Assembly (NCBI GenBank): GCA_029259545.1
Contig: JAPHEE010000003.1
Span: 10,049-74,048, forward strand
Direction: 5' to 3'
DNA length: 64,000 bases
Origin: Candidatus Alkanophaga volatiphilum
GTDB taxonomy: Archaea > Halobacteriota > Syntropharchaeia > Alkanophagales > B39-G2
Part shown: positions 236-55,466 of the stretch, piece by piece
How the letters are laid out: each line of letters begins with the position of its first letter
Numbering within the stretch: position 1 is the stretch's first letter
Translations under genes and position numbers: made by a program
The notes under the pieces: model-generated
Told to the model about the DNA's origin: nothing
The model's input: the letters and a program-made list of their open reading frames with translations, nothing else
Database searches by the model: none

Positions 236-1270
236 ATGATAAAGGCGGCAGTCATCGGCGCCTCCGGCTATATCGGCATGGAGCTTGTCCGCCTCTTGCT
301 CATGCATCCCGACGCCGAGCTCGTGGCGGTGACCTCAAGACGCTTTAAAGGTTTGCGGGTCGGCGACGTGCTTCCACACCTTCAAGGCTTCACCGACCTC
401 AGATTCGAGGACGTGGACGTCACTGATATCTCAAAGCGGGCGGACATAGTCTTCACGGCGGTACCGCACGGCGCCGCAATGAATTACGTGCCAAAAATTC
501 TGGAAAACGCAAAAGTCGTGGATTTGAGCGCAGATTACCGGCTCGATCCGCAGGAATATGAGAGGATATACAAGAAGAAGCACGAGGATCCAAGAACTGC
601 AGTTTATGGGCTCACGGAGCTTCACGCCGCCGAGATAAAAGAGGCGAGGCTCGTCGCAAACCCCGGTTGCTACCCGACAGGCGCTGTCCTCGCAGTTGCT
701 CCACTGGTTGCGGAAGGTGTCGTCGCTCACATCGTCTTCGACTCGAAATCTGGAATCTCGGGGGGCGGCGCTGAGCCCTCAGAACGCTCGCACTTTCCAA
801 ACCTCGCCGAAAACATCATTCCCTACAACATAACAAAACACAGGCATGTCGCCGAGATAAGAATGGAGCTGGCACGCCTCGCAGGAACTCCCGCCACGAC
901 GCCGAAGGTGAGCTTCACGCCACACGTCATCCCCTGCATTCGCGGCATTCTGACGACGGCGCACGTGCTCCTACGTGATGACGCGAGCGTACCCACGCCG
1001 GAGCAGCTTAAGGGTCTCTACGAGCGCTTTTATGAGGACAAGCCGTTCATAAGGATCCTTGGCGAGAGGACACCGTCGCTGAGCTATGTTCGTGGCACGA
1101 ACTTCTGCGACATCGGCTTCTGGGTGGACGAAGATGCAAAACGCATCGTCGTGGTCTCGGCGATCGATAACCTTGTGAAGGGCGGCGCCGGACAGGCAGT
1201 TCAGAACATGAACCTGATGTTCGGGCTCGCTGAGACCACCGGGCTGCTCACGCCAAGCTTGACACCATAA
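236..1270 (+). CDS. argC: N-acetyl-gamma-glutamyl-phosphate reductase / LysW-aminoadipate semialdehyde reductase (ArgC/LysY family)
   Basis: MIKAAVIGASGYIGMELVRLL Rossmann N-terminus, PGCYPTG active-site Cys motif; start moved to the internal Met of ORF 191-1270. Confidence 0.8.
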   Translation: MIKAAVIGASGYIGMELVRLLLMHPDAELVAVTSRRFKGLRVGDVLPHLQGFTDLRFEDVDVTDISKRADIVFTAVPHGAAMNYVPKILENAKVVDLSADYRLDPQEYERIYKKKHEDPRTAVYGLTELHAAEIKEARLVANPGCYPTGAVLAVAPLVAEGVVAHIVFDSKSGISGGGAEPSERSHFPNLAENIIPYNITKHRHVAEIRMELARLAGTPATTPKVSFTPHVIPCIRGILTTAHVLLRDDASVPTPEQLKGLYERFYEDKPFIRILGERTPSLSYVRGTNFCDIGFWVDEDAKRIVVVSAIDNLVKGGAGQAVQNMNLMFGLAETTGLLTPSLTP

Positions 1271-4642: not shown

Positions 4643-5473
4643 TCACCCCGCAATAGTTACGTTATGCACGACGAGCATGAAGTTGAAAGGCGATGAGCTG
4701 GAAAAATTCACAAAACGCTTAGAAGGGGGAGGCGGGGAGAAAAGTTTGCCGTTGAAGCTGGCATTGACTTCCTCCAAATAATATATCCAAGCTGAGGAAT
4801 ACTTGCCCCCAACGGAAATATTGACGTAGCTGACTTGCGTGTGGGCTACGACTTCAGTTGCATCCGCCTCGTCGGGATACGGTGTTATCGTCAGCTCGGC
4901 AACGCCGCCGCCTGCCGAGAAGGCGCCTGAGACGTTGATTATGGAGATATACAGATATTTGCTGCCATTGACGTTAAGAGAGGTGATTTTAGGCTTTGAA
5001 ACTATAATGCTGCTTGGGAAAGCTTCGACGACGGCGCCGTTCTCATAAACAATTTCATGGCCGCCAAGGAAGAACACAAGGCTTTGATAAGTAAAGTTTT
5101 CGCTGTACGTGCTGCCACTATCACTCCAAGAAATTTTCATCCAGCTTCCATCAGAGAGGAAGAGCGAGCCTTTACTCACCTTAACCTTAATCGTGCGGGA
5201 TGGAGATTGCCCGAGAGCCACTTTTTCGATGTTACTTTGGATATTAAAAAAGACGGTTTCCATGCTCTGGAAGACGGATTCCTCCTGCGTCTTTTTGATG
5301 AGAGGCACGCCGCCGACGTAGACCACAGCAACAACGGTCATGACCACCGAAAACATAAGGATATACCCAATAACTTCAGAAACTCCTCTTTTGTCAGACA
5401 ATATATTGAGGCGTGTTTCCAAATGAGACACTATGCCGCCGCGGGCTTCAGCGTTCCTTATCTTGAGTTTCAC
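4643..5473 (-). CDS. prepilin-like protein with archaeal class III signal peptide
   Basis: KRG|VSEVIGYILMFSVVMTVVAVVYV: basic residues, Gly, then a hydrophobic helix with Glu at +3. Confidence 0.55.
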   Translation of the reverse strand: MKLKIRNAEARGGIVSHLETRLNILSDKRGVSEVIGYILMFSVVMTVVAVVYVGGVPLIKKTQEESVFQSMETVFFNIQSNIEKVALGQSPSRTIKVKVSKGSLFLSDGSWMKISWSDSGSTYSENFTYQSLVFFLGGHEIVYENGAVVEAFPSSIIVSKPKITSLNVNGSKYLYISIINVSGAFSAGGGVAELTITPYPDEADATEVVAHTQVSYVNISVGGKYSSAWIYYLEEVNASFNGKLFSPPPPSKRFVNFSSSSPFNFMLVVHNVTIAG

Positions 5474-6324: not shown

Positions 6325-6848
6325 ACCGTCAACCTCACCTCGTAAACCTCAGGAACGCTTCCATTAAGCACGGTGACGAGCTTCCACGCAGAAATGGCGT
6401 TAGCAGGTGGCTCGTCAAAGCCGAAACAGCTGCTGGCATTGATGCATTTGAGCTTCAAGGGATCGAGTTTTAGGATTTCAGCTTTACAAAATACGCCTCT
6501 GTCGTTAAGGTTTGTCCGTAACCATTGTTCTGTGATGTTTTTGGCGCCGTCCCAATGAGAGCCGTTAACCGTTCCATTGACTTGATGATAAAGCCAGCTC
6601 GTGTGATCTTCCCGCTCCATGTCAAGGACATTGAGGAAGTCCTCAGCATAGAGCTTGAGCTGGACGTCCATGGTTTCAGCAAGTTGCATGCTCGTCGTCG
6701 GGACGGAGCGGGCAGCGAATATTACGACCCCTATTACAAGCATCGCTGCCATCAGGGCCTCTATAGTGTGCATTTGACCTTCTTTCGACCCTTCCTTCGA
6801 CTTTTCTACATTCTTGCCTACCATACGTAAACCACAAGCTTCGCGCAT
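6312..6848 (-). CDS. prepilin-like protein (class III signal peptide, EGQ...E+5)
   Basis: KEGQ|MHTIEALMAAMLVIGVVIFA, Glu at +5 as in type IV pilins. Confidence 0.6.
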   Translation of the reverse strand: MREACGLRMVGKNVEKSKEGSKEGQMHTIEALMAAMLVIGVVIFAARSVPTTSMQLAETMDVQLKLYAEDFLNVLDMEREDHTSWLYHQVNGTVNGSHWDGAKNITEQWLRTNLNDRGVFCKAEILKLDPLKLKCINASSCFGFDEPPANAISAWKLVTVLNGSVPEVYEVRLTVWQI

Positions 6849-7468
6849 CTCACATCGCCAAGTCGGGTGCCGGTGTTCGGAGGCGGATCGTCAATAGCGA
6901 CAAGCCGCTCCATCTTCTCGACGTTGATGTTGCCCCCTTCTGGTAGGGGGCTGCCGATTCGCAGTATCGGCGAGCCGTTGAATTCAAAGAGCGAAACATT
7001 GAAGCTATATTCAAGCTCGCTGCCGTCCACCTCGACGAAAAGCCCAAGCTTTCGGTGTATGTGCTGTTCTTCTGAGATGTTCGTTTGATTATTCCACCAC
7101 TCCTGTAGCTTCTCTATCTTCTCCCACGAAAGATTGTTGGGGATTATATCCTCGTAGGACGACCAAGTCGGAGCTCTTGATGCAAGCCCCACTCTCTTAA
7201 CGTTGCCTAAAACCGAGCTCACTGCTGTCAGGTTGCTGAAATTGAGGTTTTTATGCCATTCTGAAGTTATGAAGCCGCTGACATTGTAAATACCGCCGTC
7301 TTCGACGAGAATCGAGCTTGTTCGGTAAGCAACGGGCTGGAGATCGGAGGCTCTCGTCTGCATGGGCGTGAAGAGGGTCGGCAGGAGCGATACGAGAAGA
7401 ACTAATGTGAGCATAAAAACAGCGATGCCTGCGAGGAAATCCGTGCTCACTTGCGCCTTTTTTGTCAT
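6818..7468 (-). CDS. prepilin-like protein (class III signal peptide)
   Basis: KKAQ|VSTDFLAGIAVFMLTLVLLV. Confidence 0.55.
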   Translation of the reverse strand: MTKKAQVSTDFLAGIAVFMLTLVLLVSLLPTLFTPMQTRASDLQPVAYRTSSILVEDGGIYNVSGFITSEWHKNLNFSNLTAVSSVLGNVKRVGLASRAPTWSSYEDIIPNNLSWEKIEKLQEWWNNQTNISEEQHIHRKLGLFVEVDGSELEYSFNVSLFEFNGSPILRIGSPLPEGGNINVEKMERLVAIDDPPPNTGTRLGDVRCAKLVVYVW

Positions 7469-7539: not shown

Positions 7540-10038
7540 TTAACTGACCTCCTCTATGCGCACCCGTATTGCTGCGGCGGGGTCGTTCGTCGGTCCTATG
7601 TATCTCTCCTCCCCACCGACGAGTTCGCGCACGTGTAGCGATACTATGTGTGTGCCGCTGGACATCGGCACCCATGTGACGCTTATCCTCACGTCTTTCT
7701 CCTCTCCGTTTAAAATTTCATCCCTCCGTGCTAAGAGCATGCCGTCAACACGAAGTTTCACCCTGACCGTAACTGAGTGGTTCTTGTTGTTCTTAATGCC
7801 CAGCGCATATGCGTCAACATCGACTGGCTGTCCTATTGTCGGACTTTCGGGAGTGACGCTGAAGATATGCCTACCGCTCCACGTGACGTTACCGCTCATT
7901 TCGGAGCCAACGCCTTCGCCAACCACTATTATCTCAGTCGTTGAATCCGTCTTACCGAAATTGTCTTCAACCTCAAGCCTCACGGTGTACTCTCCAGGCT
8001 GGCTGTATGCGTGGCTTATCATAACCACGTTGCCCTCCACGTCCCAGCCGCCGTCCCCATCTAAGTCCCATCTGTAGACGGCTATGTAGCTGTTGGGGTC
8101 GTAGCTCGCAGAAGCGTCGAGCGTGACGGTCTCGTTCGTCTTCACTTCGGTCTTGTCGGCTTCGAGCACCGCCACCGGCGGCAAGTTCCTCAAGACTCTT
8201 ATCCCATGTGTTGCGCTCGTTTTCGCCCCGTCGTCGTCGGTGACGGTCAGCCTTACTGTGTAGTTACCGGCGCTGGCGTAAGCGTGGGACACGACGGCGC
8301 CGCTCGCGGTCGTTCCGTCGCCGAAGTCCCACTCGTAGGCGACAATGACGCCGTCGATGTCTGAAGCATCTGCTTCGAACTGCACCTCGACGCCCTCACT
8401 TGTGACCTCTGGTCCCGCTATGCTCACGCTCGGCGCCCTGTTATTCACCTTCACAGTAACGCTCGTGCTGTTCTTCGCCCCGTGGTTGTCGGTGACGGTC
8501 AGGGTCGCCGTGTAGGTGCCGTCGTCGGCGTAGGCGTGGGACACGACGGCGCCGCTTGCGGTCGTTCCGTCGCCGAAGTCCCACTCGTAGCTGATTATCG
8601 AGCCGTCGGGGTCGTAGCTCGCAGAAGCGTCGAACGTTATGTCCTCATAGGTGTAAGTTTCGTTCGGACGTGCGGTCGCAACGGCGACGGGCGGCGCCGT
8701 GACAGCGACGCTGAGCGAGGGCAGCGGGACTTCGTGCTCCTCACCGAAGACATCTTCGTAAGCGACTATGGAGTTCTCGGTATTCAGAACGACATCGCCC
8801 GAAACCAATGGCTTGACGTCGAAGGACACGCTCCAAGTCTCATTGACGGAAAGCTCGCCGACGCTCCATATTAGCTTGTTGCCCACGATCTGCGGCGTCT
8901 GCGTCGCATTGCCGGCGTACGTGACGGCATCTGCGAGCTTGAACGTGACGACGACGTCCTTGGCGGTGATGTTGGAAAGCTCGACCGCCAGCTCCTTGTA
9001 GATGTTAAGGAGATCATCACTGGTTGCCGGGAAGAAGGATTCGCCGCCCGTCGTTTCTGCGATCTGCGTCAGCTCGTCGTAGTTGACGCCGCCCCAGCCG
9101 ATGACGTAGATCGGGATCCCGTCAGCCGCCGCCCTTTGTGCTTGATCGAGCGGGCTGACGCCCATGTTCCACCAGCCGTCCGTCAGCAGGATTATGGCTT
9201 TGACGGCGTCATTCCGCCCGTAAGCTTCGAGGTGGTCGAGCGCCCTGTCGAGACCCTCCCCCATGGGCGTGCCGCCGCTCGCAGAAAGCCCGTTGATCGC
9301 ACTCTTGACGGCGTCCTTGTCCGTAGTCAGGCTCTGAACAACTTTACAATACGCAGAATAGCTCCAGCCATCGGAATGGAACTTCACGAGCGCCGCCCTG
9401 TCGTTGCTCTTTAAGAGATCGACGAACTCGCTAGCAGCATTCTTTGCCCCTTCTATTCTCACAGGCTGTAGCTCCACGCAGAACGTCCTATCGGGCTGCG
9501 TGTAGCCTGAGCGGTAGTAGTAGAGCCTTGCGTAGACCTCATAAGTCCCTGGTTGGAGGTTGCTCCAGCGAACAACCGAGTACGCCCCCTTGGTACTCGT
9601 CTTCGCCCCTGTATCTTTGTTCTTCAGGTAAGCGTAGTAGTAGTCGTAGTAATAGAAGTAGACGTCAGCGCCGTAGCCTCTACCCGGTAAGGTCTGAAGC
9701 ATGATCTCCACATCCGCAGGCGAGGAGATGGTGAACTCCCCGATCTTCTGGTAGCTCGTGGTGAGCGTCACGTCACGCACGTCGGTTATGATCGCCCCGT
9801 AGCGGTTCATCGAGCCTGAGCAGTCCATGACGAGGGCGACGTCGAGCGGGAACGATATCTCAGACGTCCCACTTCCGGTGAGCACGATCGTCACCCTCGT
9901 GGTCTCGCCGAGCTGGATGACGTCCGGGCTGACGCTCGCGTCCACACTCACGTGCACGCCGCCTTGCGCCGCCGTCGCCACGGTTGCCGCCACGAGCATT
10001 GCGAATGCAAAGATTGCTGACAGTTTTGCGCCTCTCAT
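7540..10038 (-). CDS. large secreted von Willebrand factor A domain protein with three PKD domains and a Tyr-rich segment
   Basis: signal peptide MRGAKLSAIFAFAMLVAATVATA; vWA MIDAS-like DVALVMDCSGSM and LLTDGWWN motifs; three repeats of YEWDFGDGTTASG / YRWDLDGDGGWD (PKD). Confidence 0.8.
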   Translation of the reverse strand: MRGAKLSAIFAFAMLVAATVATAAQGGVHVSVDASVSPDVIQLGETTRVTIVLTGSGTSEISFPLDVALVMDCSGSMNRYGAIITDVRDVTLTTSYQKIGEFTISSPADVEIMLQTLPGRGYGADVYFYYYDYYYAYLKNKDTGAKTSTKGAYSVVRWSNLQPGTYEVYARLYYYRSGYTQPDRTFCVELQPVRIEGAKNAASEFVDLLKSNDRAALVKFHSDGWSYSAYCKVVQSLTTDKDAVKSAINGLSASGGTPMGEGLDRALDHLEAYGRNDAVKAIILLTDGWWNMGVSPLDQAQRAAADGIPIYVIGWGGVNYDELTQIAETTGGESFFPATSDDLLNIYKELAVELSNITAKDVVVTFKLADAVTYAGNATQTPQIVGNKLIWSVGELSVNETWSVSFDVKPLVSGDVVLNTENSIVAYEDVFGEEHEVPLPSLSVAVTAPPVAVATARPNETYTYEDITFDASASYDPDGSIISYEWDFGDGTTASGAVVSHAYADDGTYTATLTVTDNHGAKNSTSVTVKVNNRAPSVSIAGPEVTSEGVEVQFEADASDIDGVIVAYEWDFGDGTTASGAVVSHAYASAGNYTVRLTVTDDDGAKTSATHGIRVLRNLPPVAVLEADKTEVKTNETVTLDASASYDPNSYIAVYRWDLDGDGGWDVEGNVVMISHAYSQPGEYTVRLEVEDNFGKTDSTTEIIVVGEGVGSEMSGNVTWSGRHIFSVTPESPTIGQPVDVDAYALGIKNNKNHSVTVRVKLRVDGMLLARRDEILNGEEKDVRISVTWVPMSSGTHIVSLHVRELVGGEERYIGPTNDPAAAIRVRIEEVS

Positions 10039-16553: not shown

Positions 16554-17896
16554 TCAAAGAAGGAATTTCAGAAGCACACTTGGCGACAGTGCTTTTCTTT
16601 TCGGCAGAACGTTTGTCACGACGCCGCAGAGTAACTCTGCCAGTCTTTCGTCCATGGACGCATTTTTTATTATCCTATCCAGCAATAAGGGGCGTCTTAC
16701 GAGCCTTCTGAGGAGTGACCTCCGCCCTCGCTTAGCAAGGGGCTTCCCGGAGAGGTTGGGGGTGGTTCAGACGATCGGGCGGGGTCACCGCAGCCCTGCC
16801 CGCAGGATATACCCACGGCTCGCTCCGACTCGCATCACTTCGGAAAATTAACTGCCTCCACCCCAATCATCCCCGCCCGCAGGACGAACCTTCTTAGCGA
16901 CTGAAGGTAAAGAGTGCCTGAAGTCTGCGGCGAATTGTTTTTTCCATGCCGTGTCGTATTCTTTCAGCGTCCTTAGACTCGTGTCCTCAAGCTTCAAAGC
17001 CTTCGCAGCGACATCAGTAGCAAGCTTCCCGCTTTCGAGCGCTGCCCTCGCCGGTAAGGGGGTTCACAAAGGACGCGGCGTCCCCTATGAAGAGAATTCC
17101 GTTCGTGGCGGCTGCCGCCCGTCGGGACGAGCCAGCCTCTCGCCTTGCCTGCTTTGCGTCCTTTAGCCTTGTGGCACCGGTAATAAACCTTTTAAAGTAC
17201 GCGTTCAGGTTTATCTTCCTGTGCGCCGGCATCACGCCCACACCCACATTCGCCATGTCGTCACCAATCGGGAATATCCAGCCGTAACCTGGCAGCAACT
17301 TTTGCTCATAATGAAACTCAACGAAATCAAAACTTTCAACGCCGGAAAAGTATGCACGGACCGCGACGCCTACGTTGGCTCGCCTTTTTCTCTCCTCTTT
17401 TAACAGGTACCTCGTGAGTGCTGAAAATGCGCCGTCAGCGGCGATCACTACTTCTGAATTTATTTCAGTGATGTTACCATCATGTTTGCCCCTGACGCCC
17501 ACGACGCTTTTATTTTTCAACAGAGGCTCTTTAACCAGAACTTCGAAGAATTCGGCGCCCGCATCAACGGCATGACTTCGTAAAATCTCGTCGAATTCCA
17601 TTCGTGGAGCTACATAGCCGTAGGGTCTGTCTTAGGACTTTTTGCGCTCATGCGGTAGCCGCTCGGCGAGAATATGGTTATGCCATCGGACTTTTTGAAA
17701 CCGCTTCGCTCAATGGTTCCAAGGAGCCGCATTTCCTCTAGCGTCTTCAGCGAGCGTGGAGAAATGGCGTCGCCGCACACTTTTTCCCGCGGAAAACTTC
17801 TTCTATCAACTAGTAGAACGTCATAGCCGGGTCTTGCGAGGAAGTGTGCGCAGGCGCCCGCGGTCCAGCGCCGACGATGGTGACGTCCTTTCGCAT
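16554..17896 (-). pseudogene. geranylgeranyl reductase family (FAD-dependent) gene with at least 3 frameshifts, interrupted by a MITE-like insertion
   Basis: MRKDVTIVGAGP then shift; ...PYGYVAPRMEFDEILRSHAVDAGAEF; ...FIGDAASFVNPLTGEG then shift to IALESGKLATD...; tail LVRRPLLLDRIIKN downstream of the inserted repeat; begins directly after the hmgA stop. Confidence 0.7.
16715..16912 (+). mobile_element. MITE-like repeat copy A (about 198 nt, ACCTCC...GGAGGT-type terminal inverted repeats) inserted in the GGR 3' region
   Basis: homologous to 42542-42780 (GTGACCTCC...CTTAGCGACTGRAGGTAAA ends, shared internal blocks GGGCTTCC, GGTTGGGG, CGCAGGATRTACCCACGG, AAATTAACTRCCTCCA, ATCATCCCCGCCC). Confidence 0.55.
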
Positions 17897-19483: not shown

Positions 19484-20326
19484 GAAATAGTGCCACTTCA
19501 GTCCGGTTCGCCCTTTCGTTTTCTAATCGCTTTGGATTCACTTTCACTTATGTTCGCACATCGCTCCAAGTGCCACATAAAACCTATGGGTGATCTCTGG
19601 AAACGGTAGTCCAGTATTTCTGGAAGTGAGAAAACAGCTACTGAAAAAAGATATACGGATTCCTTCCACAGATTGGATTCATGATTATGCCCCGAGGTTG
19701 GGGATTGGGGAATACTTTATTGTTGAAGTTCCGAAAGGAAAACGATCGAAGAAGCGTGGGGTTATGTAGAGAGGGCAGAGGAGTGCTTTAGAGCGTGTCA
19801 AAGGGGTTTTCGCAAACTGCCGAGAAGTTGGAACGTTGCTTAACAAAATTGTAGGCGATAAATTCAAAAGCTCTCCAACGATTAGAAAATGGAACAAAGT
19901 GATCGGAAAGTTTGAGCACTTGGCGTCGTTAGGTCTGCATGTGGAGGAGATAAAGAAGGAAAGGCCTGAAGGGGATGTCAGCCACTCCCGTCTGAAGAAC
20001 GGGAGCTTGCTCACAATGTCCCGCCGGGACGTTCATCAGCCAATCAGGACGGCTGCTTCGCCTCACGGGCTGGAAAGCTGGCAGACCGCTCCAGCCCACG
20101 AGAACAAATACGCAAAACACATATAAATAATCTTCGCCAATTCCTCCCCCCGACAGGGGGCTTCCTTGGCGGTGGGAGTGTGAAGATTGGGAAAGCGGAG
20201 GCTGAGCACGTACTGATTTAAGGCATTAATCAAGTATGCGGAAGAGTTGTTAAAGGGAGGCTGACCTGAAGCGAGCTATGCTCAAATTTCACTGCGGCAA
20301 GGCTTCACACCGGAACGTCGAGTGAG

Positions 20327-20863
20327 ATGCCCAGCTTGCAAATTAAACGGCGGGATGAAAATATGACAAAATTGCACCTGATTGGTCACATAGTATATGC
20401 TGGCTTGTATGGAATATTGATGGCATCCGCAATCTCTTGTTATAATTCTGCCAATTTGGCGGAGCTACTTTACGCAGGATGGGCAATCTTGACATTTGGA
20501 ATTATCTTTTTGCTATGGTCAAGCAAATCACGAAAGAAAAGGTATAGAGAGAACATGAGTAAGAGTAGGGAAACTTTTGTTGAAAGCGGGACGTATGCTT
20601 TTGTTCGCCATCCAGAATTCCTCAGTCACATCCTGATAATTTTTGCACTGATTGTTATCTCGCAACACTGGATCAGCTTGGCTGTCGGCACAATCCTAAT
20701 TGTTCTACTGTGTCTTGCTATGGTAGAAGAAGAAAGGAGAAACATAGAAAAGTTTGGCGATGCATATAAGGATTATATGAAAAGAGTTCCGAGAATAAAT
20801 TTAGTAGCCGGAATTGTCGGGCAAATGCGTAGCGGGAGAGGAAATAAGAGAAAAAGCAGATGA
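20327..20863 (+). CDS. isoprenylcysteine carboxyl methyltransferase (ICMT/PEMT) family membrane protein
   Basis: TYAFVRHPEFLSHILIIFALIVIS...EEERRNIEKFGDAYKDYMKRVPR signature; lower-GC gene. Confidence 0.65.
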   Translation: MPSLQIKRRDENMTKLHLIGHIVYAGLYGILMASAISCYNSANLAELLYAGWAILTFGIIFLLWSSKSRKKRYRENMSKSRETFVESGTYAFVRHPEFLSHILIIFALIVISQHWISLAVGTILIVLLCLAMVEEERRNIEKFGDAYKDYMKRVPRINLVAGIVGQMRSGRGNKRKSR

Positions 20864-20884
20864 AACTCTAAAATGAGTGGGCGC

Positions 20885-20990
20885 CCTGCGGTGCTTCGTG
20901 CCTCGCCCTTTGGGTTACTTAACAGGTGGATATTTGGTCCGCTTACGCTCGCCCAAATTTGCTCCGCAAACTTTACATATCCCTAACATT
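20885..20990 (+). repeat. direct repeat copy 1 (island boundary / duplicated upstream region)
   Basis: CAGGTGGATATTTGGTCCGCTTACGCTCGCCCAAATTTGCTCCGCAAACTTTACATATCCC, about 85% identical to 23374-23434, with weaker similarity extending 40 nt upstream. Confidence 0.55.
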
Positions 20991-21066
20991 AGGTGAAACG
21001 ATTTCCATCGCCTCGAAAAGATTTAAAATTAAGGAAGTTAATTTTTCTATTAACAGGGTGAGAAGA

Positions 21067-21375
21067 ATGCTGACTTCAGAAGAGATATTGAGGAAAATAG
21101 AGGAAAATAGAGATAAAATCAAAAGATTTGGGGTTAAAAGGATAGGTTTGTTTGGCTCATATGCAAGGGGGGAGCAGAGAGCAGAGAGTGATGTAGATAT
21201 AGTGGTGGAATTTGAAAAGGGAAAGGCGACCTTTGATAATTTTCTGAATCTGGCAGAATATCTGGAAGAGCTTCTGGGTAAAAAAATTGATCTGCTCACA
21301 AAGGAGGGTGTAAGAAGTATAAAAATAGAACACATCCGAAAAGAAATTGAGGAGAATGTGATCTATGTCTCGTAG
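21067..21375 (+). CDS. mntA: nucleotidyltransferase antitoxin (MntA-like, minimal nucleotidyltransferase)
   Basis: GLFGSYARGEQRAESDVDIVVEF motif; start moved to internal MLTSEEILRK because the ORF-track start lies inside the direct repeat. Confidence 0.7.
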   Translation: MLTSEEILRKIEENRDKIKRFGVKRIGLFGSYARGEQRAESDVDIVVEFEKGKATFDNFLNLAEYLEELLGKKIDLLTKEGVRSIKIEHIRKEIEENVIYVS

Positions 21376-21607
21376 AGGCGATAGAGAGTTCCTGCTTGAT
21401 ATACTTGAAGCATGTAACAGAATTATTGATTTCACAAAAGACATGTCATACGATGAATTTGCAGAAGACATAAAAACACAGGATGCGGTATTACGAAACA
21501 TAGAGATAATAGGTGAGGCTGTTAAGAATATATCGGATGAACTAAAAAACAGACACGGCGATATAGAATGGAAAAAGATTGCAGGATACACTTCTATTTC
21601 GGAGTGA
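21365..21607 (+). CDS. hepT: HepT-like (DUF86) HEPN toxin
   Basis: 80 aa overlapping mntA by 11 nt; HEPN-like helix pattern with R-x4-6-H region (NRHGDIEW). Confidence 0.65.
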   Translation: MSRRGDREFLLDILEACNRIIDFTKDMSYDEFAEDIKTQDAVLRNIEIIGEAVKNISDELKNRHGDIEWKKIAGYTSISE

Positions 21608-21813
21608 ATTTAGATATAGTCTGGGACGTTGCCAGAAATAAAGTTCCGGTATTGAAAGATAAGATTTCAAAGTTATTATCGGAACTGGAGTGAAAAAAGG
21701 GAAATTAAAGTATGCAATGGTGTGCACTCTTGCAACCCGAAGGGTTGCTTGGGGCTAACGCCCTCACTCATGAACACAACGAAACGGTTGTCGCTCATAC
21801 AGCAGTTGCTAAA

Positions 21814-22242
21814 ATGGAGAAGATCTCCTTATGGCAGATCGGAAAAGAGAAAGTTATTGAAATGGATACAAAATTAGCCAATAATTTGATTTCAACTCTT
21901 GAAAACGTGAATTTACAAGGAACGTGTGCCATATTTGAAGAAGACGTTGAAAAACTGAAGCAAGAAGGCAGGATAATTGAAATTACATTCAGAGAGCCGA
22001 TCAACGTAACGATAAGCCAATGGATTAAACCAGAGGATAGGAATCACATTCCAATTAATGCAAGCGGTTACAGGATTCTGACAAACGTTGAAAAAGCAGT
22101 ATTTGTCTTGAAAGGAGATTACGAAGGAAATATACTAACAAAAAGTGCCGATGTTAAAGGATATGGTTGCTGGGCAATCTCAAAAGATGGTGAGATAGAC
22201 AAAAATTGGATAAGTGAGGTTGAAAAGGAGGTTGAAAAATGA
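21814..22242 (+). CDS. hypothetical protein
   Basis: AT-rich ORF; start moved to internal MEKISLW; no recognisable domain. Confidence 0.4.
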   Translation: MEKISLWQIGKEKVIEMDTKLANNLISTLENVNLQGTCAIFEEDVEKLKQEGRIIEITFREPINVTISQWIKPEDRNHIPINASGYRILTNVEKAVFVLKGDYEGNILTKSADVKGYGCWAISKDGEIDKNWISEVEKEVEK

Positions 22243-23291
22243 GAAAAAAGTTAATAGCTCTCAGCATTCTTTGCATCCTCGTAGGATTCGTCGGTATAAC
22301 CATTAATCACTTAAATTCTGATCAGATTTACACCTGCATTTCACCGAGCGCTTATGGCTTGCCTTTATCCAGCTTGTGGAAAACTGTTTTGGAAAATGCT
22401 GGGGTGGAAAACGAGACAGCCGTTTTACAGTGGCTTTACGTTAAGATAGATAGAGATGGGAGAGTTGAGCACATCGTTTTGCAGTTCTCCGGAACTTTCG
22501 ATGGAGAGCCGAGGTGGTATCAGGTTGAGGTCTCTTGTGGAAAGGTGAGGTGGCACTCGTGGAAAGCTGAGAAAGTTGGCGAAGGCTTGCACCCCTTAAC
22601 CCTGTTCAAGGAGATAGAGAAGCTCAACCTTAGAGAAATACCTTCTGGCGAGAACGGTATTACCATCGACACAGCTCCGATATCGGGAAGCGTTGGATAC
22701 GAAGACAAGTATTCCGACATCTACCTTCTGAAAAATGGCGTGCTAATCCGATTGAAGAGGATAATCTTTGATAGCGACATACCTTGGTATCCGATTGGGA
22801 TTTGCAAGAGGGAAAAATACAACGCATCTGTAGTCGAAGCCAACAGAATTGAGGTTAGCAAGAATGTTGTCATCAACTTAACCAAGGGAAATAAGGAAAA
22901 CCAGTGTATCGTGATTTTCATCCCCCAAGACTTGAGCAAAGCTAAAGTCGTTGAGTATAGAGAAGGTTTGATGACACCACCACTCCAGAAGCTTGAGGAG
23001 GTATCAAGACAACATCCAATAGTTAAAAAATACCTTGAAATGCATCCAAGTGCAACATATTACGTTGAAATGGTATATCTTACATCTGAGGGCTTAGTTT
23101 ACCAAGTTGACGAACAATGGAGGATAAAAGATTTTGAAAGCGTTAGTAGTGCCGGTAAACCCGCAGATGGTAAAGATCATTACTGCTGGGTTGTTCACTG
23201 GCACGATCCTACGCCAGGAGTTGGCATAGACCATATTGTTGTCTACATTGATAGAGACACCTATGATAGCGTGTTTGTCCAAGAAGGGTAA
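22239..23291 (+). CDS. hypothetical membrane-anchored/secreted protein
   Basis: 350 aa, N-terminal TM/signal MRKKLIALSILCILVGFVGITI; start overlaps upstream stop (ATGA). Confidence 0.5.
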   Translation: MRKKLIALSILCILVGFVGITINHLNSDQIYTCISPSAYGLPLSSLWKTVLENAGVENETAVLQWLYVKIDRDGRVEHIVLQFSGTFDGEPRWYQVEVSCGKVRWHSWKAEKVGEGLHPLTLFKEIEKLNLREIPSGENGITIDTAPISGSVGYEDKYSDIYLLKNGVLIRLKRIIFDSDIPWYPIGICKREKYNASVVEANRIEVSKNVVINLTKGNKENQCIVIFIPQDLSKAKVVEYREGLMTPPLQKLEEVSRQHPIVKKYLEMHPSATYYVEMVYLTSEGLVYQVDEQWRIKDFESVSSAGKPADGKDHYCWVVHWHDPTPGVGIDHIVVYIDRDTYDSVFVQEG

Positions 23292-23334
23292 AGGTGTTGA
23301 AAATAAAAAGAGGAAAATGATAGGCGGGACTTCG

Positions 23335-23441
23335 TGAACTCTCCGCTTTGCTTCGGTGCCAACACTCGGACGACAGGTGGATATGTGGCTTCGCTACGCT
23401 CACCCAAATTTGCTCTGCAAACTTTACATATCCCCAGAATG
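23335..23441 (+). repeat. direct repeat copy 2
   Basis: matches 20885-20990 (see copy 1). Confidence 0.55.
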
Positions 23442-23470
23442 TTAGGCAAAATGCTTAAGGTGTAGAGAAA

Positions 23471-23806
23471 ATGAACGACCAAATAAATCCAGAACCACTA
23501 AATAAAACTGGCAAAGTGATGGTAGCCTTAATAATATTGGAAGTTATAGTAATGTGGATGTTTGCAATTTACGCTTATTTAACCCTTCCCCAGGAAGTTC
23601 CTGTTCACTTTGGATTTAAAGGAGAACCAACAAGGTATGGTGATAAATCTACATTTTTAATCGTTCCAGCAGCATTCAGCATAGCTCCTGTAATATTTCT
23701 CTTCTGGACAAAGTTTAGATTTACTCTAATTAACAGAATCAACATAACGAAAGTTTCTCCAGAAAAAAGGGGTTGCCGGAGTTGTTCCTCCCGACCAGAA
23801 CGGTGA
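23471..23806 (+). CDS. DUF1648 (SdpI/YhfL N-terminal-like) membrane protein, possibly 3'-truncated at the island edge
   Basis: LPQEVPVHFGFKGEPTRYGDKST motif; the C-terminal tail runs into GC-rich sequence (CRSCSSRPER), suggesting junction or truncation. Confidence 0.5.
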   Translation: MNDQINPEPLNKTGKVMVALIILEVIVMWMFAIYAYLTLPQEVPVHFGFKGEPTRYGDKSTFLIVPAAFSIAPVIFLFWTKFRFTLINRINITKVSPEKRGCRSCSSRPER

Positions 23807-24048
23807 ACTTGGAAAATTCCAGCGGCTTTTTACAGCTCCTGATGCCCCTGAATTCCCTAATGTTCACCTGTGAGACGAACATGGCAACCATCTCAACGTT
23901 GCTGCCGGCACTCTTAAACGTTGTCGCCGACGGGTTAAGGTCGTCGCCACGTGAGCGCTGGTACGGGAGATCCACGATCGTACTAATAGCTTGTCCGTGG
24001 GAATTTCCAAGCGGACAAGCTAAATACTCCCGGAACTAACTAAGGGGG

Positions 24049-39535: not shown

Positions 39536-40754
39536 TGATGGAAATAACAAAGACCATCAGGTGTAAACTCATCGGACTAACGAAGCGAAAGTTAGACTTA
39601 ATCGAGAATACGACAACTTCCAACACTACTTGAAGACAGGAGAAGATAGAGGCGTTTATTCTGCAACGAAACAGCAAGGGAAAAGAGCCTATCGAAAAAT
39701 TGACCTTAAAAAAGAATATCCTCTTGTCATAAGAAAAGACCTGATGGATATTTGGAAGACTGATAACAAGCTCGCCAAATACTGGGCTCGCATTCCCGTT
39801 CACGGTGTTAGAGGCGGTATTAAGGTTGCTTTAGCTCATCAACCCTTCAACTTCGAGGAGTGGGGAATTTGTGGCTCTAAACTCGTTAGAAAGAATGGTG
39901 AGTTCTACCTCCATGTGACGGTCAAAAAGAATGTTGAACTCAGGAAGGAATACTCATCCATCATAGCAATCGATATGGGAGCGAGATGGGTGGGGGTGTC
40001 GGTGGCGCCCCACCGCAGTAAGCCAAAGTTCTACGGCAAGAGGGTGAGAGAGGTTAGAGGAAAGTATTTCCGGTTGAGGAGGAAGCTTGGAAGGGAGAAG
40101 AAACTACTGGCGATAAAGAGGACAGGACATAAGGAGAAGAGAGTTGTGAATAATGAGCTACACAAGATAGCAAAGGAAATTGTTGATGAAGCTGAGAAGC
40201 ACAACGCAATAATTGCAGTCGGTAATTTGAATGGGGTTAGAAAGAACAACAGGGGAAGAAAAGTGAACAGGAAAGTTAATTCGATGCCTTTCTACAAACT
40301 GAAGGAATATATCAAGTATAAAGCCCTTGAGAGAGGAATTGCAGTGATAGAAGTTCCAGAATTTAACACATCAAAGCAATGTTCTCGTTGCGGCTCGATG
40401 CGAGCTGAAAGACCTTCTCAAGGATTATTCATCTGCAAGGATTGTGGCTACCAGATTAATGCCGATGTGAACGGAGCTAAAAATATATTGAAGCGAGCCC
40501 AGGGCTATATGCTCTGGGCAGGGGCTTCTGTGACCCAGCCCGAAGGGGGGAGCAGGTACATCCTGCACACTCCCCAACCTCCCAAGGCTTCCGGTGGAAG
40601 CCCTGACTTTAGTCGGGAGGAGGTCACGAGGCTTAACTACCAGTCTATCGTAAATGCGACGAATCCTTTGCCATTTGAATTTAAATCCAGCAAGAACGCC
40701 GTTGTAAACAAAAAAGTTTTTATACGTATAATCCTCGCTTTCTCTTGTGAGTAA
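39536..40754 (+). pseudogene. tnpB: IS605/IS1341-family TnpB (RNA-guided nuclease family) with an N-terminal frameshift
   Basis: MMEITKTIRCKLIGLTKRKLDLIEN in one frame, then EYDNFQHYLKTGEDRGVY... in the ORF-track frame (39630-40754); RuvC-like and CSRCGS...CKDCGY zinc-finger motifs; no tnpA adjacent. Confidence 0.7.
40515..40627 (-). mobile_element. MITE-like repeat copy E (internally deleted, reverse orientation) inside the tnpB 3' end
   Basis: CTGCACACTCCCCAACCTCCCAAGGCTTCCGGTGGAAGCCCT...GGGAGGAGGTCAC is the reverse complement of the copy-B left arm. Confidence 0.45.
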
Positions 40755-47954: not shown

Positions 47955-49172
47955 GTGGGCAATATCTTCGAGAACTTGCTTGGAGAAAGTAGAATTTTTG
48001 AAAATAAGGACGTTTTACGTCCGAGCTATGTGCCCGGACGCCTCCCGCACCGGGAGGAGCAAATAGAGTGTTTAGCTCGAGCTCTCGCCCCGGCGTTGAG
48101 AGGTGAGACGCCTTCCAACATACTGGTCTACGGGAAGCCAGGAACCGGAAAGACTGCGACCGTCCGGTACGTCGAGCGGGAGCTGAAGGACGCCGCCTGC
48201 AAGGTCGGGAGCAAGTGCATGCTGTTCTATTTGAACTGTGAAATAATAGACACGCAGTACCGAGTCTTTGCAGCAGTCGCAAGACAACTTAGCAAAAACG
48301 TGCCGATGACCGGCTGGCCGACAGACCACGTCTATCAGGAGTTCAAAAACGCTTTGGACGCCGAGGGTGGCTGCGCTATAATCATCCTCGACGAGATAGA
48401 CAAACTTGTCTCAAAGGGCGACGAAGCCCTTTACACGCTTTCAAGAATGAACTCGGAGCTTAGAAATGCAAGAATAAGCATAATAGGCATCTCTAACGAC
48501 CTTACCTTCACAGAGCGTCTTGATCCCAGGGTGAAATCCTCTCTGGGGCAGGAAGAAATAGTGTTTCCACCGTACAACGCCGTGCAGCTTCGTGATATTC
48601 TTGAGCAGCGCGCGAAAATAGCTTTTAAAGAGGGGATCCTTGATGACGACGTGATTCCGCTGTGCGCGGCGTTCGCCGCCCAAGAACATGGGGACGCCCG
48701 CAGAGCGCTTGACCTTCTGAGGGTTGCAGGCGAGCTGGCGGAGCGTGAGAATGCTGCGAAAGTCAGAGGCGAACATGTAAAGATGGCAAAGAATAAAATA
48801 GAGGCGGACAGAATCGCTGAGGTTGTGCGAACGCTGCCTTTGCAATCGAAGCTCGTGCTCAGCAGCATTTTACTGCTGGATACCGAGCGCAGAAAGAGGC
48901 GTTTCAGCACCGGTGAGGTTTATAACATGTATCGCAAATTATGCAAATACACAGGGACGGATGTACTGACGCAGCGTCGCGTGACGGACCTCATCTCAGA
49001 GCTCGATGCGTTGGGGTTGATAAACGCCGTGGTCATAAGTAAGGGACGATACGGGAGGACAAGAGAAATATCGCTGAGCGTGCCCTCAACCATAGTGAAA
49101 TCCGTGCTCTTTGAGGATTACAAGCTGAGCGCGCTCGCGGGAGTGAGGTTGAAGGTGCAGATGACCCTTTAG
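47955..49172 (+). CDS. cdc6: Orc1/Cdc6 replication initiator
   Basis: [16 protein letters not shown] Walker A, AAA+ fold, C-terminal winged helix. Confidence 0.85.
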
Positions 49173-51783: not shown

Positions 51784-52158
51784 TCCGACGTTAACGGCTG
51801 ATGCTCATCTCTAAGTGCAAAGTTCGACCAATGGGCGAATTGGGCGGGTGCGTGGGTCGTAGCCAGCGTTTGTCGGGCGAGTATGATGGTGCCGAGCCCG
51901 ACGGCAAGGTTGAGCAGGCACATCTTTGAGATATTTGAATAGGCGAAGGCAATTGTTTTACTCTAATAAAATCCTCTTTTAAGAAAAGCGATGGATAATT
52001 ATGGCGAGCCTATTTGAGAAAATTCCTTGCTTATACAGGGAGGCACACTGTCGCAAGAGCGAGCCATCCACAAACGTGGAGGTCAAGATCTTCTGAGAAG
52101 CTCCCACCTGAAAGAGTTTTAGGTTACTGCTGGAAAGGTGGAAGAAAATAATTTGAAA

Positions 52159-53454
52159 CTACACGGGAATCAGCATTCTCTCCCCTCCTTCCCAGTTCTT
52201 TGAATAGCATTCGATTCTTTTAGCTTCTAGCTCGTGTTCCGCAGCTCTAATACTTATTGGAATCGAAACGGCTGGAATCTTCTTTATTTTCACTTCTCTC
52301 TTCTCCACTATTACGGGTTTTTTCTCAATGCGTTCTATTTGAATGGGCAATGCAGCTATGTAAATTGTGTTATTCGTTAACGCTACGTCTCCGATTTCTC
52401 CATTTAGAATGTAAAAATTCAGGATTTTGCCATTTTCGTCAAACATGAACAGGATGCAATTGCTGAACCAAGCTATGAAGGTTGTTTTGTCCCGTATGAT
52501 TTTTCCTTCCAACTCGTACGTGCCAGGGGTTGGATAGGTAACGTTCACTATCCTAGCCCATACGATCTCACCATCGGAGCTGAGTTTGGCTAAAAAGGGA
52601 TAATCCTGATCGTTCAAACGCTCGTGAACCAAGCCAACGACATAAACGCAATCTTCAGCGTACACGGCGTAGAGATCTACCCAATATTTCTCCACCTCAT
52701 AAAATTCTGGAACCTTTTCACCTTCTTTCTCAGCAGCTTTTCTTTTCTCCTCAGGAATTTTAACCTTAACCTTTACTTTCTCATCCGATTTTAAGCTGGT
52801 AGCCCATTCGAGTTCTCCATCCTTGTTAAGTTTGATTACACTATTCCACCTCGTTGCGTATATTCCATCCGAAACGGATATGTCATCGTTTAGGTCTCCA
52901 AATCTGTGTCCGCTCCTCCTCAACAACTCTACCGCCCAAATTACGTTTAAATCTTCATCAGTTTTGACAATTCCATCCCTCGTGTTGAGGTATAGATACT
53001 TCCCGTCGCTTTCAATGTCAAAAACGTTCAGAATGTCTTCGTAATAAACTGGAATCGGATTCTCTCTTGTTCCTTCGTAGCCAACCCTCTTTGTCACGAG
53101 ATCTTTCACCCATACAACTTTGCTGTTTCTGATCTTAACGACATCAACGCCAGCAGCGTAAATATTGCCGTTAAAGCACTTGAGAACGTTTGAAACCCAT
53201 AGACTCCCGTTCAACGTCAGATTCCAACTATTAGCTCTGATATGCGGAATCGGCGGGCTTTCCAGACTCCTGTTTATCTCCATTATGTAGATATTTTTAT
53301 CGTCCGTTGCGATATTAATTCCTTCGATCGTTTCAAACCTGTAGTCTGGATTTCCATTAAATCTAGAAGTTGTTAGGTAGTTAACAGAAAATGTTACGGC
53401 AAATGTTGCAGCTGCAACTATTGCCAACACTAATAGCCTATTCACCTCAAACAC
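52159..53454 (-). CDS. membrane-anchored PQQ-like beta-propeller repeat protein (lower-GC gene)
   Basis: N-terminal TM, repeated ...DG.I.W...-type blades. Confidence 0.5.
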   Translation of the reverse strand: MFEVNRLLVLAIVAAATFAVTFSVNYLTTSRFNGNPDYRFETIEGINIATDDKNIYIMEINRSLESPPIPHIRANSWNLTLNGSLWVSNVLKCFNGNIYAAGVDVVKIRNSKVVWVKDLVTKRVGYEGTRENPIPVYYEDILNVFDIESDGKYLYLNTRDGIVKTDEDLNVIWAVELLRRSGHRFGDLNDDISVSDGIYATRWNSVIKLNKDGELEWATSLKSDEKVKVKVKIPEEKRKAAEKEGEKVPEFYEVEKYWVDLYAVYAEDCVYVVGLVHERLNDQDYPFLAKLSSDGEIVWARIVNVTYPTPGTYELEGKIIRDKTTFIAWFSNCILFMFDENGKILNFYILNGEIGDVALTNNTIYIAALPIQIERIEKKPVIVEKREVKIKKIPAVSIPISIRAAEHELEAKRIECYSKNWEGGERMLIPV

Positions 53455-53502
53455 CTCACTACTTATTTCTGACCGACAATGTGATTTTTCGTATCCATGG
53501 TA

Positions 53503-54246
53503 TCACCTTCCAATTACTATTATTTCATCAACTGTTTCATCAACCCTTTCCTTGCCTTGATTCCAATACAGATATACAATGCTGACTCGAACTCCTTTGC
53601 AAGCCTTAAACCCACCAATATCTATTGCATTATCCTCCCATGCAAATCCTTCCAATGAAAGGGATTCACCAGCAGCCTCAGAAGCAACGAAGAATGTGTT
53701 TTTATAGCGGGAAATGTCGTGCGAGCTTAACAGCTCTTTCAATTCCTCATCTGTAACATTTCTGTAATGCCATTCAATTCCTGCTGCATCTTCAGCATAT
53801 TCAGCAATTTCAAGCGAGAACGCATCTGCAGATTCGTTGTAGAATTTAAACACAATAGGTAACTCTGGCTTAGCTAGCGGATGGGCAATGACTTCAACAA
53901 AATATCCAGAAACAGAATACCCAATGTCGCAGAAATAGATTTTGCCATAGCGTTTCAATAATTCCTCAACCTTCTCTCTTCCTGCTTTCTCTTCAAGAAC
54001 TCTCTTTACAGCATCCAGAATGGTAGGATTTCCCTTTCCAAACAGCTTTTTTCCAAGTTGCTCGTAGCTGTAGGGTTGCGGTATTTCGACGATCGGAGAT
54101 TCTTTATCTTCTTCCCATACGCTTTTTAATTTTCCAGAAGGACCAATCTCGATATGAACCACATGAACTAGCTGGGTATAAGCTGCTACACCCACCACAG
54201 CCACGAGAAGTATTGGAACCACGAGTTTAAGTATTTTCATGATCAA
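53503..54246 (-). CDS. hypothetical membrane-anchored/exported protein (lower-GC gene)
   Basis: N-terminal TM MIMKILKLVVPILLVAVVGVAAY. Confidence 0.45.
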   Translation of the reverse strand: MIMKILKLVVPILLVAVVGVAAYTQLVHVVHIEIGPSGKLKSVWEEDKESPIVEIPQPYSYEQLGKKLFGKGNPTILDAVKRVLEEKAGREKVEELLKRYGKIYFCDIGYSVSGYFVEVIAHPLAKPELPIVFKFYNESADAFSLEIAEYAEDAAGIEWHYRNVTDEELKELLSSHDISRYKNTFFVASEAAGESLSLEGFAWEDNAIDIGGFKACKGVRVSIVYLYWNQGKERVDETVDEIIVIGR

Positions 54247-54272: not shown

Positions 54273-54575
54273 CTACCGTGAAGCCCCGATTTCACTTAAC
54301 ATTTTGCGAATATGCAAAGTTCGGCGAAGCCGAATTTGGGCGAAGCGAAGCCGTATGTTCGCTGTTAGGCGAAGTGCACTTTTCACTTCTCTATTTCCTC
54401 CTTCATATCTTTTGACAGTTTTGACAGGTAATAAAAAAGGAAATATAAGCCATGCTGGCATTGAAAGTGAAAATGGTAAAAACCAAAGAGGCAACTTTCC
54501 ATGAATCTTGCCAAGATATATTCCGAACTCCATAATAAGAAGGGAAAAAGTAAGAATGGCACTTAAACACAGCAC
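54273..54575 (-). CDS. possible small membrane protein
   Basis: hydrophobic ORF at the island edge; weak. Confidence 0.2.
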   Translation of the reverse strand: MLCLSAILTFSLLIMEFGIYLGKIHGKLPLWFLPFSLSMPAWLIFPFLLPVKTVKRYEGGNREVKSALRLTANIRLRFAQIRLRRTLHIRKMLSEIGASR

Positions 54576-54594
54576 AGCCTCAAAGTATCTGTTA

Positions 54595-55466
54595 ATCCAA
54601 AAAGTCCTCCGTGCTCGAAGCCCTGTCCCTGCTGCCCAGACCTAAAGACGTGCTTTACCCATGGGGGGACGAGAGAAAACTTCCTCGCCAGACTTCACGG
54701 AGGACGGAGCTCGCTCGTTTACGGCTACTCGGGAAAAGCTGAAATCGAGTACACCATAAACGGTCGCACTTGGGTTCTGGAGTTAACCGACGACGGAATT
54801 ATGAATCTCAAATTCGGTGAGGAGTTTGTCGATAACATCGCCGATGCCGACCTCGCATCCCTTCTGGGAATCGGCAAAGATGATTTGAGGAGTTGCGTCT
54901 TCTTCCTACCTCATCTCTACAGGGAAATGACCATCGCACTGGACAGAGAGGCGAAAAATCTGAAGAATCGAATCGTCAAGGATGAAGCCAACGTAAGGGT
55001 TGCGAGAGAGGTGAGCAAGTGCGTGGACGACGAATACACCGAAGTTCTTTGGGAGGAGGAAGGGCTCAGCCTCAGGAAGGAGTTTCCTGACAGGGGACCC
55101 CTCTACATAAAAATCGACGATCTCGGGGACGGGTTGAGGAAGGCGGTGAGGGTCATGCTCTTGTTGGAGGTGACGCAACCAAAATTAATCCTGTAGGACG
55201 ACTTCGAGGCTTCCGCGCATCCGAGCCTCGTGAAAATGCTGCTCGAATGGTTGAGCGAAAAGGACTGGCAGGTGGTCATAGCGACGCACAGCATAGATGT
55301 GCTCTGCGGACTGCTGGAGGTCGGGCTGGAGGACGCCACGGCTCTGCAGCTCAAGAAGTCGCCGCAGGACGGGCTGATCGGCGAAAAGCTGACGCTCGAC
55401 GAGCTGGAGGACGTTATCTACGCAAATCATGACCCACGCCTCCTTGCGGACGCACTGGGGCTGTGA
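54595..55466 (+). pseudogene. AAA15/AAA21-type ABC ATPase, 5'-truncated (Walker A lost), frameshifted, with an in-frame TAG
   Basis: ...SSVLEALSLL (post-P-loop helix) in one frame; ...KLIL[TAG]DDFEASAHP...VVIATHS (Walker B LILLDD with TAG at 55197-55199, and ATHS H-loop) in the frame of ORFs 54801 and 55230. Confidence 0.6.

Follow-up and report, generated by a model that had tools for sequence, protein, structure and literature searches.

What are the similar direct repeats of about 100 nt that flank a toxin-antitoxin (TA) gene pair in the archaeon Candidatus Alkanophaga volatiphilum? The stretch of DNA analyzed here, referred to as the window, comprises 64,000 nucleotides of contig JAPHEE010000003.1 (positions 10,049 to 74,048). 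An earlier reading made from the sequence alone had described two copies about 85% identical and 2.45 kb apart, bracketing a lower-GC island with an mntA-hepT pair, and had taken them either for att-site remnants of an integrated element or for duplicated promoter/leader regions. Our results indicated that the repeats are probably attC-type recombination sites of a lineage-specific type, which separate mobile gene cassettes in an integrase-less chromosomal array, i.e., a cluster of attC sites lacking integron-integrases (CALIN).

The two repeats were readily confirmed. Their core (20922-20983 and 23373-23434) aligns over 62 nt without a gap at 85% identity, with 2451 bp from start to start, and a conserved 32-nt half of it occurs exactly twice in the window versus 0.00 times expected (none in 100 shuffles). 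When extended with their flanks to about 100 nt by nhmmer and a covariance model, the copies cover 20906-21004 and 23357-23457. Since the two copies are translated in different frames, a coding function was rejected. A profile made from both copies then revealed a third, diverged copy on the minus strand (~54297-54367), located within a second low-GC block, whose central hairpin differs from that of the first copies by a compensatory change (TTTGC/GCAAA to TTCGGC/GCCGAA). A covariance model, R1, was built from 20 distinct aligned copies and a hand-written structure. In total, the window carries four copies, two on the plus strand (A and B) and two on the minus strand (C and D), listed here with their end boxes (R'' and R') and scores.

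20906-21004, plus strand: attC-like site A; R'' ACTTAAC at 20917-20923, R' ATTAGGT at 20988-20994; R1 81.5 bits, E = 2e-24.
23357-23457, plus strand: attC-like site B; R'' GGACGAC at 23368-23374 (degenerate), R' GTTAGGC at 23441-23447; R1 84.6 bits, E = 1.7e-25.
54284-54381, minus strand: attC-like site C; R'' GCCTAAC at 54370-54364, R' GTTAAGT at 54300-54294; nhmmer E = 9e-5, R1 79 bits, E = 1.4e-23.
51793-51889, minus strand: degenerate attC-like site D; R1 21.6 bits, E = 6.5e-4 in the search of all loci (1.8e-5 in a local search without filters).

Site A terminates a segment with an ICMT-like gene and precedes the mntA cassette, while site B precedes a DUF1648 cassette, to which site C belongs. 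Site D delimits the second low-GC block on its far side, where it adjoins a PmbA/TldD gene, and the positions of its L boxes are deleted. The low GC content noted earlier is real, 0.35-0.48 across ~20250-23850 versus 0.55-0.65 in the surrounding sequence, but the repeats do not bound it: the low-GC stretch begins ~650 nt before copy A and ends ~330 nt past copy B.

All sites follow one order of parts: R'', a 3-4-nt spacer, L'' (GGATATGTGG), a variable hairpin H1, CCCAAAT, a hairpin H2, AACTT, L' (CACATATCC), a spacer of ~7 nt, and R'. They form imperfect palindromes of 67-98 nt from R'' to R', with asymmetric spacers (median of 4 nt on the 5' side and 7 nt on the 3' side) and a variable central part that ranges from no hairpin to a 5-bp H1 plus a 5-8-bp H2. 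The R'' boxes are RYYYAAC-like (e.g., GCCTAAC, ACTTAAC, and GTATAAC) and the R' boxes GTTRRRY-like (e.g., GTTAGGC, GTTAAGT, and GTTATAC); AAC is present in 32 of 36 copies of R'', and GTT in 24 of 35 copies of R', another 6 of which have ATT. A strict match to the consensus is seen in 14/36 R'' and 9/35 R' boxes, compared with 5/10 and 6/10 in accepted attCs. The layout is the one described for integron attC sites, in which R'', L'', L', and R' are accompanied by a central spacer that stays unpaired and a terminal structure that varies (PMC8946536). Many copies also carry, ~11 nt (about one helical turn) upstream of R'' and outside the canonical attC, a second AAC-containing motif (CTAAC..CTC or GCCTAAC-N7), for example at 21750-21768 of the window and at 2166-2190 of the fetched locus L010.

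The pairing of these parts is supported by covariation. In a MAFFT alignment, 82.5% of the cells were paired versus 16-41% when the partners were slid, and the covariation score was 0.161 versus 0.096 in shuffles, none of 500 shuffles reaching 0.161. In an alignment of 37 copies that had been fitted to the model, 18 of 27 pairs changed on both sides, with 107 such cells versus 45 ± 5 in shuffled data. The L''/L' boxes occur as GGATATGTG/CACATATCC, GCATATCTG/CAGATATGC, GGCTATCTG/CAGATAGCC, GGATAAAAG/CTTTTATCC, and GGATATGCG/CGCATATCC, and they pair in the alignment without a consistent bulge. In each of the three window copies, folding slightly favored the bottom strand, and A-C mismatches in the L stem numbered 20 versus 10 G-T pairs.

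The repeat family extends well beyond the window. Metagenomes were scanned with a pattern of the repeat core from which both R end boxes had been deliberately excluded, and 24 loci were obtained versus ~1.5 expected, of which ~20 were judged to be true. A scan of species-representative genomes, a collection that does not include the window's own species, yielded one true match, the metagenome-assembled genome (MAG) UBA148 (L009), and three chance matches; a scan of viral contigs for the family gave no match. The family is thus common to the fetched metagenome contigs and to UBA148, a wastewater lineage. One related contig carries a hydrothermal vent label, and the window locus itself is present in five metagenome assemblies. 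In the window and the fetched loci, R1 detected 37 copies at E ≤ 0.001, many of them in same-strand arrays: 5 copies in 4.3 kb in L010, 4 in L031, 3 in L017, 3 plus a weaker, truncated fourth in L021, and 2 each in L009, L023, and L032. In the metagenome contigs and UBA148, same-orientation copies are spaced at 0.3-2 kb, mostly with one co-oriented open reading frame (ORF) per interval. The 21 intersite intervals have a median of 788 nt, and in 20 of them the longest ORF lies on the strand of the site. Sites are therefore co-oriented with genes, one per gene boundary.

A CALIN is defined by two or more sites that point the same way, are separated by less than 4 kb, and are not accompanied by an integrase gene. 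Such an arrangement is present in the window, where the gaps between sites called by R1 are 2352 nt (A to B) and 2394 nt (C to D). If the repeats are cassette boundaries, they should also bear a second signature. In integrons, crossover occurs at G|TT of R', so that the TTRRRY before a cassette complements the R'' of the cassette's own attC, and the R' adjacent to that R'' belongs to the next cassette. Complementarity was scored at the four variable positions of 17 consecutive site pairs. Watson-Crick pairs were found at 49 of 68 positions between the R'' of a site and the R' of the site upstream, but at only 30 of 68 between the R'' and its adjacent R' (random, 33.2 ± 4.5; P = 0.00035), and the upstream partner was better in 13 pairs, worse in 3, and tied in 1. 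Within the window, the R'' of C (GCCTAAC) is the exact complement of the R' of B (GTTAGGC), and the R'' of A (ACTTAAC) is the exact complement of the R' of C (GTTAAGT).

The boundary itself could be read from the DUF1648 gene, which stands behind five different upstream sites. Its common sequence always begins at G|TTAGGCGAAATGCTT, and its own site is common up to ...GCAAAAY G and continues with either TTAAGT or TTAGGC. Thus, the cassette boundary lies at, or within ~2 nt of, the G|TT in R' in all five contexts. Chimeras in L014 and L032 had been considered for placing the crossover as well and were set aside as ambiguous (columns 66-102); it was the DUF1648 contexts that gave a clear answer.

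Comparison of related strains shows that gains and losses of cassettes coincide exactly with the sites. L014 matches the window at 98% identity on either flank and lacks 20999-23371, the block between A and B; a relative without the island, as the sequence-only reading had suggested comparing, does therefore exist. In L019, the ICMT-like gene and site A are joined straight to the start of a 245-aa gene that lies between C and D in the window. In L032, mntA and an intact hepT form a cassette of 765 nt that has its own site and follows a different gene, and L034 to L038 carry intact DUF1648 genes (P0001 and P0002; 85% and 80% identical) as single-gene cassettes with a site on each side, followed in L035 to L037 by a glycosyltransferase gene. 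The ICMT-like gene lies beside an HMG-CoA reductase gene in three strains (window, L014, and L019, which are collinear), and variable cassettes follow its attC. With near-identical strains differing by whole cassettes at the sites, the locus provides population-level evidence of cassette exchange in archaeal chromosomes.

These features agree with what has been reported for archaeal integrons, which were first described in 2022 from genome scans and recombination tests in E. coli and which are mostly CALINs, with TA systems as the commonest annotated cassette function (PMC9668308). Like the window array, the archaeal CALINs lie on a chromosome beside housekeeping genes and have sites that are imperfect palindromes with RYYYAAC...GTTRRRY ends, follow one another at less than 4 kb, and resemble each other more within a lineage than between lineages; a cassette usually holds a single co-oriented ORF, and TA genes are found among the cassettes (PMC9668308). 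As an attC array, the locus is a further case of the kind known in Archaea since that report. The published archaeal attCs (TAACAAnTC...GCCGAC...) differ from the window family in the L boxes (GGATATGTGG and CACATATCC) and in the CCCAAAT and AACTT motifs, and the window cassettes are unusually long and multi-gene, because one site has been lost.

Lineage-specific attC families are also known from bacteria, where the Vibrio cholerae repeats (VCRs) are such a family of a sedentary chromosomal integron. Like the window family, VCRs are highly similar sites of ~100 nt that recur along a chromosomal array and have a long terminal structure that is both branched and variable; TA cassettes are scattered among them, and cassette content differs between strains. 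In contrast to VCRs, the window family has an archaeal host, no intI/attI platform was found with it, its arrays are small (2-5 sites per contig), and its sequence is unrelated. By analogy with integrons, the site would fold as single-stranded DNA and be cut at G|TT by a tyrosine recombinase of the integron-integrase type, either encoded elsewhere or supplied in trans, and cassettes would exit as circles and re-enter at another attC.

Several results weigh against this interpretation. No integrase was detected by Pfam among the window ORFs of at least 180 aa or in the precomputed Pfam matches for 14-35 kb, nor in any fetched locus by a crude motif scan. Hence, no complete integron, in which attI and intI (the gene of a tyrosine recombinase with the IntI-specific insertion) adjoin the array, was found at the window locus, and neither was a repeat site, an attI-like sequence, or GTTAAGT upstream of the ICMT-like gene. 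R2, a small stand-in covariance model of 10 accepted attCs (primers of Ghaly et al., Data S9/S10), gave no match to sites of the window family with default filters and at most 8.7 bits with filters off (E ~5, noise level). The family is not present in the supplementary data of Ghaly et al. (PMC9668308). Among the entries of the published list of archaeal integrons are a hydrothermal-vent MAG of the Archaeoglobaceae and UBA148; for UBA148, contig 63 is listed with a complete integron and contig 23 with a CALIN, but contig 62, which carries two copies of the window family, is absent (PMC9668308). Regarding structure, extrahelical bases, which set strand choice in attC sites, were looked for in the L stem of the alignment and none was clear, single-sequence RNA and DNA folds were not significantly stable (z from +0.3 to -2.8), and conservation reaches beyond the canonical attC, to GAAAT after R' and CTAAC..CTC before R''. 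Finally, the spacer CTAACA before TTAGGT is common to the window and L032 despite different upstream cassettes, which suggests a better fit to homologous exchange than to a cut at G|TT. Homologous exchange between the sites may therefore occur as well, as the sequence comparison suggests.

Since a model trained on attCs misses the window family, surveys may undercount archaeal cassette arrays. A bolder version of this idea is that the sites form a distinct archaeal attC class that is largely missed by finders, maybe served by a non-IntI recombinase, and whose L'/AACTTT half is maybe a BRE/TATA promoter (BRE, the B recognition element) driving the next cassette in arrays that lack a common promoter. 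We regard it as rather doubtful; if it were true, archaeal cassette arrays would be more widespread and more self-expressing than the 2022 survey suggests.

It is improbable, on the present data, that the repeats are a selfish small element resembling miniature inverted-repeat transposable elements (MITEs) or repetitive extragenic palindromes, or a structured RNA (hairpins of 3' untranslated regions or terminators) between genes, rearranged by homologous recombination. Such elements would account for hairpins that covary, for conservation from the window archaeon to UBA148, and for the fact that no recombinase was found. However, G-U (G-T) pairs are not in excess over A-C mismatches (42 versus 53), as expected of DNA, and Rfam at gathering thresholds shows no family anywhere in the window; together, these data indicated that the constraint looks like one on DNA rather than on a sense-strand RNA. 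Furthermore, the copies are strictly gene-co-oriented with one per gene boundary, and neither the complementarity of R'' and R' across a cassette nor a fixed G|TT boundary is expected of MITEs or RNA motifs.

The duplicated promoter/leader regions of the earlier note fared no better. In this account, which we consider quite improbable, portable modules composed of a BRE/TATA-like AAACTTTACATAT and an initiator region were duplicated before accessory genes, and genes were turned over by homologous recombination. Every copy does lie ~15-80 nt upstream of a start codon and in the same direction, AAACTTTACATAT resembles an archaeal BRE/TATA, GAAAT is conserved ~26 nt downstream of it, and the spacer common to the window and L032 would place the exchange within the element and not at G|TT. 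Yet the TATA-like stretch (with the variants CAGATATGC, CAGATAGCC, and CTTTTATCC) covaries with a partner 50 nt upstream, as the pairs GGATAAAAG/CTTTTATCC and GCATATCTG/CAGATATGC illustrate; a promoter does not explain why the box that follows a gene should be complementary to the 6-mer that precedes it; and position N in TTTNCATAT is free to vary. The reading of TTTACATAT as a simple TATA box was rejected on the same L''/L' covariation.

It is highly improbable that the 2.45-kb low-GC island is a single integrated element with copies A and B as its attL/attR remnants. Such an element would have repeats only at its two ends, contain an integrase gene, and often have a tRNA gene as its target. 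Direct repeats do flank a low-GC block with a TA pair and the 98%-identical L014 lacks exactly the A-B block, but neither an integrase nor a tRNA gene was found (a tRNA scan of the window gave none, hence no tRNA-type attachment site), the low-GC stretch extends past both repeats, two further copies lie in the window and relatives have arrays of up to five within ~4 kb, the block is the mntA-hepT cassette (alone in L032) fused with a second cassette, and the neighboring DUF1648 gene is itself a cassette between sites of the same type. What stands of the att-site proposal is that these are recombination-type sites with presence/absence at the repeats, not that they are the two ends of a single element. 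The same note had held that a repeat found upstream of many unrelated genes, with no island-like presence/absence polymorphism, would speak against it; the repeat is indeed found upstream of many unrelated genes, but the polymorphism is nevertheless present.

With attC-type sites as the preferred reading, the genes of the window array can be assigned to cassettes. The gene content given earlier (ICMT-like, mntA-hepT, two hypothetical genes, and DUF1648) was recovered by Pfam and ORF analysis.

20327-20863, plus strand: ICMT/DUF1295/PEMT-like membrane methyltransferase gene (Pfam).
21067-21375, plus strand: mntA, nucleotidyltransferase (NTase) antitoxin, intact (Pfam NTP_transf_2, E = 2.4e-16).
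21365-21693, plus strand: hepT pseudogene in two ORFs (21365-21607 and 21568-21693), matching positions 1-86 and 91-119 of Pfam HepT.
21730-21768, plus strand: remnant of the mntA-hepT cassette's own attC (alignment of the window with L032).
21712-23291, plus strand: two unannotated genes of 176 aa and 350 aa (ORFs), ending at site B.
23471-23772, plus strand: 5' part of the DUF1648 cassette gene, cut by an inversion, with a 33-nt deletion after 23737 (Pfam DUF1648 in ORF 23471-23806).
54384-54603, minus strand: 3' part of the DUF1648 cassette gene, with a 2-nt loss near the 3' end and its natural stop 14 nt before the R'' of site C.
52159-54240, minus strand: two unannotated genes of 245 aa and 431 aa (ORFs between C and D, no Pfam match) in the second low-GC block.

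The window has the adjacent, overlapping NTase and HEPN genes of the type VII MntA/HepT TA system. When aligned with the intact 114-aa hepT of L032, the window hepT shows a 16-nt deletion after 21584 that takes out the GMRDKL codons, among them the codon for the Rx4HxY arginine, and causes a frameshift. The L032 relative keeps the motif (RDKLIHFY), whereas the window toxin gene has lost both the motif arginine and the reading frame, and consequently the pair is not a working TA module here. Hence, the MntA/HepT pair of the sequence-only reading is present in both genes, with mntA intact, but its toxin gene is dead. The pair may once have stabilized the array. Downstream of hepT, the homology between the window and L032 stops within R'' (ACT|TAAC) at 21768, where L032 has a complete attC (570-682). 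The attC of the mntA-hepT cassette has thus been deleted in the window, and the A-B block is a fusion of two cassettes. The 350-aa product of the second cassette has an N-terminal membrane/signal segment and a precomputed match to PF27293 AF_1575; families named after Archaeoglobus fulgidus genes, AF_1575 among them, are matched by some of the window proteins.

The split DUF1648 gene points to a further rearrangement, an inversion that also cuts an ATPase gene.

23773-54603, no strand assigned: inverted segment of 30.8 kb, with breakpoints at 23772/3 and 54603/4, inside the DUF1648 and AAA_15 ATPase genes.
23773-23882, minus strand: N-terminal part of the AAA_15 ATPase gene, broken off within the P-loop after GRNNSG|.
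54604-55466, plus strand: remainder of the AAA_15 ATPase gene, |KSSVLEAL..., with one frameshift and an in-frame stop at ~55197.

When the inversion was undone in silico, both reading frames were restored, giving ...SPEKRG|FWINRYF... in the DUF1648 protein and the P-loop GRNNSG|KSSVLEAL in the AAA_15 ATPase. The DUF1648 junction is spanned by the full-length homologues P0001 and P0002, and the five contigs L034 to L038 are collinear across 23774|54603 in blastn; across the other junction, residues 1-51 match positions 1-50 of the Pfam AAA_15 profile. L019 had been considered as proof of the uninverted order and was rejected, because an A x C inversion in an inverted genome would give the same junction; L034 to L038 were used instead. 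The 30.8-kb inversion explains the truncated DUF1648 gene, which had been attributed to the GC transition: the gene is indeed cut, at 23772/3, but what cuts it is an inversion breakpoint, not an island border. A distance of 230-315 nt separates the breakpoints from the attC-like sites, indicating that the inversion was not mediated by these sites. It is also found in L014 and L018. The broken genes later gained lesions, i.e., the 33-nt deletion and the 3' frameshift in DUF1648 and the frameshift and in-frame stop in the ATPase gene.

With the inverted segment turned back, B and C are ~0.6 kb apart, and the order before the inversion would have been the ICMT-like gene, site A, a block with mntA, the dead hepT, the lost attC, and the 176-aa and 350-aa genes, site B, DUF1648, site C, the 245-aa and 431-aa genes, and site D. 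The locus illustrates the decay of such arrays: its toxin gene is inactivated, two cassettes have become one through loss of the site between them, and an inversion has split a cassette gene. A Cdc6/Orc1 gene (47955-49172, plus strand) lies within the inverted segment, and a replication origin may be located near or within the inversion, judging from the position of this gene.

Several observations were made in the related loci. A retropepsin-like aspartyl protease gene (L026 7617-8135, plus strand; L010 3029-3200, plus strand, truncated) enters the same site variant in two unrelated contexts, and the two proteins have a common end, ...PMVEIL.ATPPNSRH, i.e., another cassette in two places. In L035, a cassette array with three sites is immediately preceded by an IS110-family transposase gene (DEDD_Tnp_IS110; 465-905, minus strand); in bacteria, attC sites serve as targets for some IS110/IS1111 elements. 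Upstream of the ICMT-like gene, a 195-nt stretch of the window (19979-20173) is absent from L019, which is otherwise 95-97% identical.

Elsewhere in the window, genes for Cdc6/Orc1, PAN, Pus10, and archaeal pilin-like proteins agree with an archaeal host. A TnpB-like protein (39630-40754, plus strand; Pfam Cas12f1-like_TNB, E = 2e-23) is encoded in a lower-GC stretch at 39-42 kb (GC ~0.46), next to a CitMHS/ArsB-type transporter gene, and its gene may be an IS200/605-type remnant. A geranylgeranyl reductase gene (17014-17780, minus strand) seems to be split, since a 195-aa ORF matches GGR_cat and a 56-aa ORF upstream resembles the N-terminal part; this could reflect a frameshift or a pseudogene. 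Lastly, a large surface protein with a VWA domain and triple PKD domains (7540-10038, minus strand) is encoded beside archaeal pilin-like genes (DUF7289 and DUF7287; 4643-5473 and 6818-7468, both minus strand), in what looks like a surface-structure cluster unrelated to the repeats.

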